A DNA stretch of 64,000 nt from an uncultured Mollicutes bacterium (GTDB taxonomy: Bacteria > Bacillota_I > Bacilli_A > RF39 > UBA660). The DNA is taken from assembly GCA_946500425.1 (NCBI GenBank), contig CAMMVQ010000001.1:15056-79055 (forward strand). Reading direction: 5' to 3'. Below are positions 13,502 to 16,247 of this stretch, piece by piece. The translations under genes were made by a program, and so were the position numbers. The notes beneath the pieces are model-generated. The model was given only the letters and a program-made list of their open reading frames with translations, was not told where the DNA came from and made no database searches. Each line of letters starts with the position of its first letter. Position 1 is the stretch's first letter.

Positions 13502-14869
13502 ATGGAAAAATATGAGAAGTTTAGAAAAACGTACCCGGTTTTTTATTATCATGGATTTGATGTTACAGAAAAAGAGGATGAGGTTTTTGTTACTTATCAT
13601 TTTGAAATAGAGGGTTTAATGAGGTTTAACCCAACCCTTAGAGTTCCGATAAAGGTTAAAAGTGATTATGACAAAGTTCTTTTATACAAGATTATATTTA
13701 GTGCGGGGTTAGCAGAAATTCCTAGTTACTGGAAGGCTACTTGTTCTCCTAAAATAATTATTTCTTGTGGAAAACTTAATGAAGACGAAACAAGCTGGGT
13801 TAAGAAGTTACTTTATAATGGTTTGGGTGAGTTCTTCTTCATTAATGGCATTACTCCTAATTATGATGATTTTGTTAAAATAGAAAGTAATGGTCCGACT
13901 TATGAAAGTAAAACAGATGAAAGAAACTATGATGGTTATTTAGTTGCCGTAGGTGGTGGCAAGGATTCACTAGTTTCTCTTGAAATTTTAAAAGACGTTA
14001 AGAATAAAAAAGTTTTTATCATAAACAATAGAAAGGTATGTTTTGATGGGGCTAGAGTATCTGGCATAAAAGATGAGGACATAATTAACGTTGAGAGATT
14101 ATTTGACAAGAATATTATTGAGTTAAATAAGAAAGGATTTTTAAATGGGCACACGCCTTTATCTAGTTGCATAGCTTTTATTTCCTATCTAACCGCTTAT
14201 GTAAATGGTATTAAATACGTTGTGTTATCAAACGAATCTAGCGCTAATGAAGCTAGCGTAAAGGGCACAAGGATAAACCATCAGTATTCTAAGAGCTTTG
14301 AATTTGAGAATGATTTTAGGCGTTTTACAAGTGGCTATTTAACTTCTAAAGTAGAATATTTTAGTCTTTTAAGACCCTTAAATGAGCTTCAAATAATGAG
14401 CATTTTTACTAAGCATCCTAAATATTTTAATCATTTTATTAGTTGTAATAATGGTGGCAAAAGAAAGAACATTGGAAAGACTGATGGTTGGTGTTTAACC
14501 TGTCCTAAGTGTCTGTTTATTTACATAATAATGAGTAATTTTGTTTCGCAAGAAACAATGGTTAATATCTTTGGAGAAAACTTACTTGATAAAAAAGAAA
14601 TGCTTAACTATTTTTTAGAATTACTTGGAAAAACAGAGAATAAACCATTTGAATGCGTTGGAACGGTAGATGAAGTAAACTACGTGGTCAATAACTTGAT
14701 TAAAAAGGGTGGTAAATTACCATATTTATTAGAATATTATAAAAATAATTACGGTTTAGTTAAAATGGATGATAGTATATTAAAAAATATTAATGATGAT
14801 AATAACGTTCCTAAAGAGTTATTAGTTCTTGTTAAGGAGGCTTTACTTGATGATAGAAAAAATAATTAA
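13502..14869 (+). CDS. PP-loop (N-type ATP pyrophosphatase-like) family protein of unknown function, translationally coupled to the downstream Mur ligase
   Basis: VAVGGGKDSLVS resembles the SGGxDS PP-loop. AAGAGGTG RBS before ATG 13502. Its 3' end overlaps the MurD-like start by 20 nt. Confidence 0.55.
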   Translation: MEKYEKFRKTYPVFYYHGFDVTEKEDEVFVTYHFEIEGLMRFNPTLRVPIKVKSDYDKVLLYKIIFSAGLAEIPSYWKATCSPKIIISCGKLNEDETSWVKKLLYNGLGEFFFINGITPNYDDFVKIESNGPTYESKTDERNYDGYLVAVGGGKDSLVSLEILKDVKNKKVFIINNRKVCFDGARVSGIKDEDIINVERLFDKNIIELNKKGFLNGHTPLSSCIAFISYLTAYVNGIKYVVLSNESSANEASVKGTRINHQYSKSFEFENDFRRFTSGYLTSKVEYFSLLRPLNELQIMSIFTKHPKYFNHFISCNNGGKRKNIGKTDGWCLTCPKCLFIYIIMSNFVSQETMVNIFGENLLDKKEMLNYFLELLGKTENKPFECVGTVDEVNYVVNNLIKKGGKLPYLLEYYKNNYGLVKMDDSILKNINDDNNVPKELLVLVKEALLDDRKNN

Positions 14870-16247
14870 CGAACTTAATTCTTATGATAATATTTTAATT
14901 TTAGGTTTTGGCAGAGAGGGAAAATCCACTTATAATCTAATTAGGAAATACCTTAAAAATAAACGTCTTACGATAGCAGATGGAAATGATAAACTCTTAG
15001 ATAACAATAAAGAACTTTTAAAGGACAAACACCTTAGTTTTATTTTAGGAGATAAATACTTAAACAATTTAAATGATTTTGACTTGATTATAAAGTCTCC
15101 AGGAGTTAATTTTAAATACGTTAATCATGATAAAATAAGAAATAAAATTACTTCGCAAATCGACTTGTTTTTAAGGTTTTCGTGCGTCAAAACAATAGGA
15201 GTTACTGGTACTAAAGGAAAAAGTACAACCGCGTCTTTAATATACTACGTGTTAGAAAAATTGGGAAAGAAAGCTATTTTAGCAGGTAATATTGGTATTC
15301 CTATTTTTAATGAAATAGAAAAAATTGATGAGGATACAATCGTTGTTATTGAACTATCTTGTCATCAATTACAATTTGTTAATGCTTCTCCTAACATTAG
15401 TGTTCTTTTAAATTTATATGAGGAGCATTTAGATTTATATAAGTCTTACGAGGAGTACCAATTGGCTAAATTAAACATTTTTAAATACCAGAAAAAAGAC
15501 GATTATGCCATTATTGGAATTGATAGTCCAGACTCTAAAAAATGGTTTGAACCTAAAGCAAATACTTATGCTTTTAGTCTTGATAAAAACGCTGAAATAA
15601 AGCAGGGAATCATAATGAAAGAAGATGGCTTATACCTGAAAAAGAGAAAAGAAAACATCTTGGTTTATAATAAGATGAGAAAAAGAAATCTTTTGGGAGA
15701 GCACAATCTTAATAATGTCGCCGCAACGCTATGCGTGTGTGACATATTAAACTTACCTTTGGATAAAGTGGCTTTTTTCATCGATGGTTTTAAGCCCTTA
15801 GAACACCGAATGGAATTCGTTGGAAAGTATAAAGGGATAAATTTTTACAATGACTCAATCGCAACCATTCCTTCGGCTACCATAAACTGCATTAAATCAA
15901 TTCCTAACGTTCAGACCGTTATAATTGGAGGAATGAACCGTGGTATTGACCTTAGTTCTTTGGTTGACTTTTTAAATGATAAAAATAACTCGGTTGAAAA
16001 TTGTTTATTTCTTAAAGACACAGGTTATTTAATCGCTGATGAACTAATTAAATTAGGGTGTAAAAAAAACATAATAAAAGTTAATGATATGAAGGAGGCA
16101 GTTAAAAAAGCTTATGAGCTAACTGAGGTTAATTTTGCTTGCGTTTTATCTCCTGCTGCTGCGAGTTATAATACTTATAAAAATTTTGAAGAACGTGGAA
16201 AAGATTATAAATGGTGGGTTAATACCATTGGAAAAGCTGAACTTTAG
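14850..16247 (+). CDS. murD: UDP-N-acetylmuramoyl-L-alanine--glutamate ligase (MurD family)
   Basis: N-terminal ILILGFGREGKST Rossmann-like region. Mur ligase P-loop GVTGTKGKSTTASL. Length 465 aa. AAGGAGG RBS. Confidence 0.8.
   Translation: MIEKIINELNSYDNILILGFGREGKSTYNLIRKYLKNKRLTIADGNDKLLDNNKELLKDKHLSFILGDKYLNNLNDFDLIIKSPGVNFKYVNHDKIRNKITSQIDLFLRFSCVKTIGVTGTKGKSTTASLIYYVLEKLGKKAILAGNIGIPIFNEIEKIDEDTIVVIELSCHQLQFVNASPNISVLLNLYEEHLDLYKSYEEYQLAKLNIFKYQKKDDYAIIGIDSPDSKKWFEPKANTYAFSLDKNAEIKQGIIMKEDGLYLKKRKENILVYNKMRKRNLLGEHNLNNVAATLCVCDILNLPLDKVAFFIDGFKPLEHRMEFVGKYKGINFYNDSIATIPSATINCIKSIPNVQTVIIGGMNRGIDLSSLVDFLNDKNNSVENCLFLKDTGYLIADELIKLGCKKNIIKVNDMKEAVKKAYELTEVNFACVLSPAAASYNTYKNFEERGKDYKWWVNTIGKAEL

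Follow-up and report, generated by a model that had tools for sequence, protein, structure and literature searches.

Introduction

In the canonical route to the D-glutamate (D-Glu) of peptidoglycan, MurI (or a D-amino-acid aminotransferase) is paired with a MurD encoded in the division and cell wall (dcw) gene cluster. In the MurD2/MurL pathway, L-glutamate (L-Glu) is added to the cell-wall precursor and then converted to D-Glu in an ATP-driven step (PMC8788868, PMC5808125). The subject of the present report is a pair of overlapping genes, a murL homologue followed by a gene for a MurD-family ligase, found in a 64,000-nucleotide stretch of DNA of an uncultured Mollicutes bacterium (contig CAMMVQ010000001.1, positions 15,056 to 79,055; the whole stretch is called the window in the following). 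Very probably, the pair is a murL-murD2 two-gene operon that would install the D-Glu of peptidoglycan without free D-Glu.

The pathway is known from MurL (XOO_1319) and MurD2 (XOO_1320) of Xanthomonas oryzae, with orthologues confirmed in Micromonospora and Salinispora (Feng et al. 2017, as cited in PMC8788868 and PMC5808125). According to the same two reviews, MurL acts on the L-Glu dipeptide and yields its D-Glu counterpart unidirectionally, probably via an adenylate of the alpha-carboxyl group, with consumption of one ATP and formation of AMP, and is described as being without known conserved or cofactor-binding domains. In the reviews, the pathway is attributed to Xanthomonadales, to some Alphaproteobacteria and to rare actinobacteria, and low-similarity matches are noted in cyanobacteria, one fungus and one amoeba; its distribution is described as limited, and it is put forward as a narrow-spectrum drug target on the ground that few genera have it. 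Firmicutes and Bacteroidetes go unmentioned in the accessible literature on the pathway, i.e. these two reviews.

The locus in the window shares with the Xanthomonas system both protein families, the order of the genes (murL, then murD), their position outside the dcw cluster and the extent of their overlap, which is 20 nucleotides in Xanthomonas sacchari as well. It differs in its host, an uncultured Bacilli bacterium with about 30% G+C, and in the limited identity of its proteins, 34% for MurL and 24% for MurD2. An earlier note on this DNA, made from the letters of the sequence, had proposed that a PP-loop ATPase and a MurD-like ligase form a D-Glu pathway of the MurL/MurD2 type; this proposal is now supported by the homology of the first protein to MurL, by the residues that the ligase shares with MurD2 and by the linkage of the two genes across genomes. 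The system itself is thus the known MurD2/MurL; what is new is the host lineage, the breadth of its occurrence in gut Bacillota and Bacteroidota, the replacement of Lys319 by Ile as a marker of the ligase and the assignment of MurL to the QueC-like PP-loop proteins.

Identity of the first protein

Judged by its profile and motif matches, the first gene is a MurL homologue. The sole NCBIfam match of the 455-residue product is NF041275 (MurL_Xanthmoales; E 4.8e-70, 236.3 bits), a model with the product name UDP-N-acetyl-alpha-D-muramoyl-L-alanyl-L-glutamate epimerase, of which positions 71-395 of 447 align with residues 78-404 of the protein. The comparison with Xanthomonas MurL, which the earlier note had put forward as the way to check its candidate, gives 34% identity over 316 amino acids (E 3e-57) to the RefSeq-annotated murL product of X. 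sacchari, and all family-invariant motifs are common to both proteins (GGGKDS, NGH-P, SNE-SA, NHQ-SK, WC-x2-CPKC and KPFECVG).

Precomputed Pfam assignments on the identical database protein consist of MurL_N plus MurL_epimerase_C (PF26299 and PF26298), a combination shared by almost every one of the 120 closest homologues. Since Pfam models for MurL already cover these proteins, membership in the family is existing database knowledge and not new. A Pfam scan of the protein returned only a sub-threshold match to DUF6395, because the copy of Pfam that was used lacks the MurL_N and MurL_epimerase_C models.

The sequences of X. sacchari were taken from NZ_CP010410.1, a record of a plasmid collection that is actually a piece of chromosome. 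Many records of this collection are chromosomes or their fragments, some of 4-5 Mb and with dcw clusters, which is a caveat for statistics based on plasmids.

The PP-loop and four-cysteine core of MurL

The GGGKDS motif, in which the earlier note had recognized a PP-loop, spans residues 151-156 of the protein. It does not vary among the 54 homologues of alignment A1, and in the 66 more diverse sequences of alignment A2 its conservation is complete or nearly complete (90% or more). In an AlphaFold2 model of MurL (predicted local distance difference test, pLDDT, 91.6; predicted template modelling score, pTM, 0.91) it lies between a strand (146-149) and a helix (154-162).

When the profile of the 66 sequences was compared with Escherichia coli QueC by hhalign, a match was obtained over 173 columns (E 1.6e-4, probability 50%), so that MurL 145-344 aligns with QueC 3-210 of 231, i.e. 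with nearly the whole protein, GGGKDS being paired with SGGQDS and C315, C331, C334 and C337 with the four cysteines of the QueC motif. The diversity of alignment A2 was required for this result, as the shallower A1 gave only E 0.02-0.04 against TilS and QueC. TilS was matched in the loop only (E 0.014; GGGKDS versus SGGLDS), and glutamate racemase MurI, taken as a control, was not matched (E 0.53). Sub-threshold Pfam matches of family members point to QueC, the HUP domain of MnmA, NAD synthase, PAPS reductase and diphthamide synthase, the QueC model matching 6 of the 66 sequences (best E 7.5e-4).

The cysteine motif of MurL is collinear with the C-x8-C-x2-C-x2-C of QueC; in alignment A2 its last three cysteines do not vary, and C315 is kept in at least 90% of the sequences. 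The four cysteines of QueC are zinc ligands, and those of MurL would, by analogy, bind zinc as well. On the strength of these profile and motif matches, the ATP site of MurL is assigned to a PP-loop in a QueC-like core that carries the four-cysteine motif. PP-loop enzymes use ATP and release AMP, and such a core fits a chemistry that yields AMP plus pyrophosphate. MurL differs from QueC in an additional N-terminal MurL_N domain and a C-terminal helical region, in the replacement of the first Ser of the loop by Gly, in its substrate, a UDP-muramyl dipeptide, and in the outcome of the reaction, epimerization rather than formation of a nitrile or an amide. A PP-loop assignment for MurL was not found in the accessible literature (PMC8788868, PMC5808125), and a sequence search of the PDB with MurL gave no relative even at E 1. 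The assignment offers concrete residues of MurL, namely K154, D155 and S156 of the loop, and C315, C331, C334 and C337.

As to the relatives of the family, 47 of the 66 members give sub-threshold matches to Pfam DUF6395 (best E 4.3e-5) that centre on the Cys-x2-Cys-x2-Cys region, residues 325-367 of the MurL in the window, which suggests that DUF6395 is an uncharacterized sister family of MurL. MurL-like genes, whose products are 28-31% identical to MurL of the window, are also found on mobilizable Pseudonocardia plasmids without a MurD neighbour; in the one region examined, from plasmid pPaSha1 of Pseudonocardia alni, the gene (4764-6164 of that region) adjoins a WD40-repeat gene and a helix-turn-helix gene. 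A further use of the MurL fold, unrelated to the first, is possible.

A MurD-family ligase with the residues of MurD2

The second gene product contains the Mur_ligase_M and Mur_ligase_C domains, its closest solved relatives are MurDs, and it passes the MurD equivalog model TIGR01087 with 329.7 bits (cutoff 211.95). With the canonical enzymes it shares the Mur ligase family and the conserved catalytic residues K115, N138, E157, H183 and K198. What sets it apart is its position away from mraY and ftsW, its MurL partner and the residues at a few key positions, by which the second gene is classed as a MurD-family ligase of the MurD2 type.

In place of Asp182 and Lys348 of E. coli MurD, X. oryzae MurD2 carries Glu197 and Arg358, and the E197D/R358K double mutant of MurD2 is a D-Glu ligase; E. 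coli MurD gains the use of L-Glu upon the K319T substitution (PMC8788868). At the positions that correspond to residues 182, 319 and 348 of E. coli MurD (the numbering used in the following), the ligase in the window has Glu192, Ile337 and Arg364, the same E/I/R combination as X. sacchari MurD2, with NDSIATIP in the window and NDSISTTP in X. sacchari around position 319. Among MurDs found directly downstream of MurL in named genomes (73 sequences), EIR occurs in 63, DIR in nine and a gap followed by IR in one; among MurD domains fused to MurL, Lys319 is present in none of 31 and Arg348 in 30. Overall, position 319 is Ile, Leu, Phe or Ala in 105 of 105 MurL-linked MurDs, and Lys in nine of nine canonical MurDs. 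The canonical set consisted of four MurDs of solved structure and five mraY-adjacent MurDs of dcw clusters (from B. velezensis, Listeria, S. aureus, P. distasonis and Acetoanaerobium), and its members have DKK (E. coli, P. aeruginosa, T. maritima, P. distasonis, Acetoanaerobium), TKR (S. agalactiae) or AKR (B. velezensis, Listeria, S. aureus) at the three positions. NDSI[AS]T versus the canonical NDSKAT, together with Arg at the Lys348 position, may therefore be a marker that sorts MurD2-type from canonical MurDs, the non-Lys residue at position 319 being a feature derived in this analysis and not a published definition.

An exception to a simple rule that equates Ile319 with MurD2 is the MurD of Subdoligranulum variabile (record OY725846.1; about 2965-4359 of the region examined), which has Ile at 319 (NDSIATSP) with Asn and Lys at 182 and 348, has no MurL or mraY gene within 3 kb and groups with the canonical MurDs in the tree described below.

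Identity of the ligase to MurL-linked MurDs of Bacteroidota is 38-52%, whereas with canonical MurDs, those of its own class, Bacilli, among them, it falls to 25-31%. In a neighbour-joining tree, the MurD of the window, 105 MurL-linked MurDs and Xanthomonas MurD2 are separated from the nine canonical MurDs and that of Subdoligranulum in 195 of 300 bootstrap replicates, while the alternative split, with Xanthomonas MurD2 on the canonical side, occurs in 42 of 300; only one proteobacterial MurD2 was among the sequences. The earlier note had considered that the ligase might cluster with canonical D-Glu-adding MurDs, which is at variance with both its E/I/R residues and this moderately supported grouping.

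Linkage and distribution of murL and murD

A HMMER search of 1.84 billion cluster representatives retrieved 2596 relatives of MurL, 1128 of them at E 1e-30 or better, and MurL and MurD are joined in one polypeptide, in both domain orders, in 37 of the best 149 relatives. In a scan of one genome per GTDB species, at least 591 stretches with a MurL gene were confirmed, in Bacillota and Bacteroidota. The best 80 of these were surveyed as loci: a MurD homologue lies directly downstream of MurL and on the same strand in 75 of the 80, and most pairs overlap or are less than 30 nucleotides apart, with start codons chosen heuristically. The fusions and the adjacency indicate that the linkage is not a matter of chance.

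The 80 loci come from uncultured Bacilli and bins labelled as Mollicutes or Tenericutes; from Erysipelotrichaceae, Solobacterium and Bulleidia; from Clostridia, among them Ruminococcus flavefaciens, Lachnospiraceae, Oscillospiraceae, Roseburia and Coprococcus; and from Bacteroidales, among them Muribaculaceae, Alistipes, Marinifilum and Draconibacterium. The closest named genome among the matches listed is Bacilli bacterium HGM10826, with 72% identity in MurL. In Bulleidia the gene order is pbp, mraY, a small regulator, secDF, a HAD hydrolase, murL, murD and recJ, so that no murD follows mraY, and the MurL-linked gene is the sole murD of the 13-kb locus. In the NCBI records of this clade, MurL is a hypothetical protein and the ligase a D-glutamate ligase.

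These data also bear on the identity of the first gene, for which the earlier note had envisaged an unrelated family, such as a tRNA-modifying enzyme. A PP-loop enzyme of tRNA modification or queuosine synthesis that lies beside murD by chance could account for the weak profile similarity to QueC, TilS and the HUP domain of MnmA, and miaB and other RNA-related genes are indeed nearby. The probability of such a coincidence is negligible: the direct matches to MurL are stronger by orders of magnitude, chance is excluded by the linkage in 75 of 80 loci and by the 37 fusions, and this identity is effectively refuted.

Absence of a canonical route in the window

Both the isolation of the murD homologue from a dcw or mra cluster and the lack of a glutamate racemase, on which the earlier note had remarked, were borne out by searches of the window. 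In tblastn with E. coli RsmH, FtsI, MurE, MurF, MraY, FtsW, MurG, MurC, DdlB, FtsA, FtsZ and MurI as queries, none was found in the 64 kb, and the MurD of the window used as a query detected no second Mur ligase there. Pfam scans of most open reading frames of at least 100 codons in the window revealed no Asp/Glu racemase, class IV aminotransferase or other cell-wall gene, and no cell-wall genes were present in the few kb of flanking sequence beyond it.

Proposed pathway and its alternatives

The reactions proposed for this organism are those of the described pathway. Judging from its residues and homology, the MurD2-type ligase would join L-Glu onto UDP-MurNAc-L-Ala with ATP, D-Glu being left unused. 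MurL would then adenylate the alpha-carboxylate of the terminal Glu, with the PP-loop presumably gripping the phosphates of ATP, and such adenylation would render the alpha-proton acidic; the L-Glu dipeptide would be turned into the D-Glu form at the expense of one ATP, with release of AMP. The overlap of the genes would couple their translation and lead to co-expression of the two enzymes: with 20 shared nucleotides and the ribosome-binding site of murD inside murL, the L-Glu intermediate would not accumulate.

Several observations weigh against this reading. The ligase scores above the cutoff of the equivalog model for canonical MurD, and D-glutamate ligase is the name given to its relatives by NCBI. 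Arg at the Lys348 position is also found in canonical MurDs of Bacilli and alone does not discriminate, so that the discriminating positions are 319 and, less strictly, 182. Overall identity of the ligase to X. sacchari MurD2 is just 24%, and Pro433 and Phe435 of X. oryzae MurD2 correspond to Ala438 and Tyr440; however, the P433A and F435L mutants of MurD2 stay specific for L-Glu (PMC8788868), and hence these two residues are not decisive. Bootstrap support for the MurD2 clade is moderate, at 65% with the largest canonical set and 44% (89/200) with four canonical sequences. The NF041275 score of MurL is far under the NCBIfam equivalog cutoff of 700 bits, although, the model being tuned to Xanthomonadales, this limits automatic naming rather than homology. 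A Foldseek search of the PDB with the MurL model gave no significant match, only generic Rossmann-like folds (best E 0.0095), so that the PP-loop fold assignment rests on the sequence profiles and the motif. Finally, the view comprises 64 kb and a few kb of flanks, and murI, a D-amino-acid aminotransferase or a second murD may be located elsewhere in the genome.

The equivalog match, the annotation of the relatives, the shared Arg and the possibility of a murI elsewhere would also suit an ordinary D-Glu-adding MurD that receives D-Glu from a racemase encoded outside the window, with the MurL-like gene being redundant or accessory. Such an arrangement is improbable in the light of the residues at positions 182 and 319, which match Xanthomonas MurD2 and none of the nine canonical MurDs, and of the grouping of the ligase with MurL-linked MurDs across phyla. 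The fusions and the near-universal adjacency speak, moreover, for an obligatory partnership, and in the Bulleidia locus mraY is not followed by a murD of its own.

Still less probable is that the MurL homologue adenylates the glutamate of the muropeptide but completes the reaction by another chemistry, for instance amidation of the alpha-carboxylate to iso-glutamine in the manner of PP-loop amidotransferases, and acts with the ligase in a variant pathway. Many PP-loop enzymes couple adenylation to nitrogen transfer. The QueC-like PP-loop core, the limited identity to a Xanthomonas MurL and the Pseudonocardia genes without a MurD, as a sign that the fold may serve other uses, can all be read in this sense. 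Epimerization by MurL is favoured by the fact that every family-invariant motif is common to the Xanthomonas protein; furthermore, the ligase carries the residues for L-Glu, its L-Glu product would have to be epimerized before MurE can act, and the operon is devoid of a glutaminase or amidotransferase partner.

In MurT/GatD of Gram-positive bacteria, a Mur-ligase-like enzyme and a glutaminase amidate the alpha-carboxylate of D-Glu in lipid II, so that there, too, a protein of the Mur ligase family and a partner act on the glutamate of the stem peptide. Amidation of the MurT/GatD type was considered for the locus and rejected, given that no GatD-type glutaminase is present, the ligase is a full MurD by TIGR01087 and its partner is MurL.

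If the murL-murD2 operon works as proposed, the substrate stereochemistry with which the ligase is annotated is probably mis-stated and, with MurL named a hypothetical protein, the pathway is invisible in metabolic reconstructions of many gut organisms. The chances are about even that MurD2/MurL is the normal D-Glu route for a large fraction of the Bacillota and Bacteroidota of gut and rumen, which would then lack MurI and depend on the pair, with MurL being a QueC-like PP-loop zinc enzyme. As the gene pair is present in hundreds of commensal species of these phyla, inhibitors of MurD2/MurL may hit the gut microbiota.

Layout and expression signals of the locus

The coordinates of the genes, motifs and putative signals are collected in table 1. 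Both open reading frames and their 20-nucleotide overlap, as described in the earlier note, were confirmed by direct reading of the sequence, and products of 455 and 465 residues were likewise called independently on identical public contigs. The opposite strand of the two genes contains no open reading frame of 80 codons or more.

Table 1. Features of the murL-murD locus (positions are those of the window).
Feature	Position	Strand	Remarks
Promoter-like site TTAAAA-18-TATTAT	13419-13448	+	In the 59-nt gap between the thymidine kinase gene and murL; weak evidence
Shine-Dalgarno-like GAGGTG	13490-13495	+	6 nt 5' of the murL ATG; direct reading
murL	13502-14869	+	455 aa; ATG start; stop TAA 14867-14869
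PP-loop-like motif G151-G-G-K-D-S156, codons	13952-13969	+	Strand-to-helix junction in the model
Cysteine motif C315-x15-C331-x2-C334-x2-C337, codons	14444-14512	+	Putative Zn(Cys)4 site
Shine-Dalgarno AAGGAGG for murD	14834-14840	+	Within the 3' end of murL and 9 nt 5' of the murD ATG; direct reading
murD (MurD2-type)	14850-16247	+	465 aa; ATG start; overlaps murL
Glu192 codon	15423-15425	+	Equivalent to E. coli MurD Asp182 and X. oryzae MurD2 Glu197
Ile337 codon	15858-15860	+	Equivalent to E. coli MurD Lys319; NDSIAT versus canonical NDSKAT
Arg364 codon	15939-15941	+	Equivalent to E. coli MurD Lys348 and X. oryzae MurD2 Arg358
Terminator-like hairpin	16239-16265, T-rich tail to 16275	+	10-bp stem, 7-nt loop; overlaps the murD stop codon

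Scans for promoters and terminators gave nothing significant in this AT-rich DNA and are of descriptive value only. Promoter-like sites in the region number 26, with 18.4 expected from shuffled sequences, and the site upstream of murL is not significant alone. Within 12700-16500, one such hairpin, that at the murD stop codon, was found against a chance expectation of 1.0; only its position is therefore suggestive, namely of the end of a two-gene operon.

Upstream of murL are serS, a NUDIX/NrtR-type gene, a histidine phosphatase gene, an AAA_28 ATPase gene, a gene for a small membrane protein and the thymidine kinase gene; downstream of murD, three poorly characterized genes are followed by miaB, tyrS and the RNase J gene. 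The window as a whole, with about 30% G+C, almost all genes on the same strand and two T-box leaders, fits a Bacillota chromosome.

Other features of the window

Just 3' of murD, the genes at 16325-17254 and 18203-19369 are paralogues (27% identical, no Pfam match) and flank a gene at 17321-18190 with a weak kinase-like match to HipA_C (E 2e-7); the genes at 16325-19369 could form a toxin-like kinase module. A faintly similar open reading frame occupies 29870-30766 of the minus strand.

The T-box leaders are at 6328-6514 and 63554-63752 (143 and 114 bits). The former sits 5' of a DUF1653 gene, an unknown gene and serS, and the latter is at the right edge of the window; no T-box match was found for tyrS at 21851.

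Ribosomal protein S2, encoded at 57664-58686, has 340 residues and a C-terminal extension that matches Rho_N (E 1.7e-10), a domain pair that is also found in the public gene call on the identical contig. At 52075-53940, a protein of 621 residues with Cys/Thr-rich repeats and an N-terminal hydrophobic segment is encoded, which has no Pfam match. Finally, a PD-(D/E)XK transposase-like gene (5358-6302) and a gene for an ORF6N-domain protein (39451-39768) are possibly remnants of mobile elements amid housekeeping DNA.

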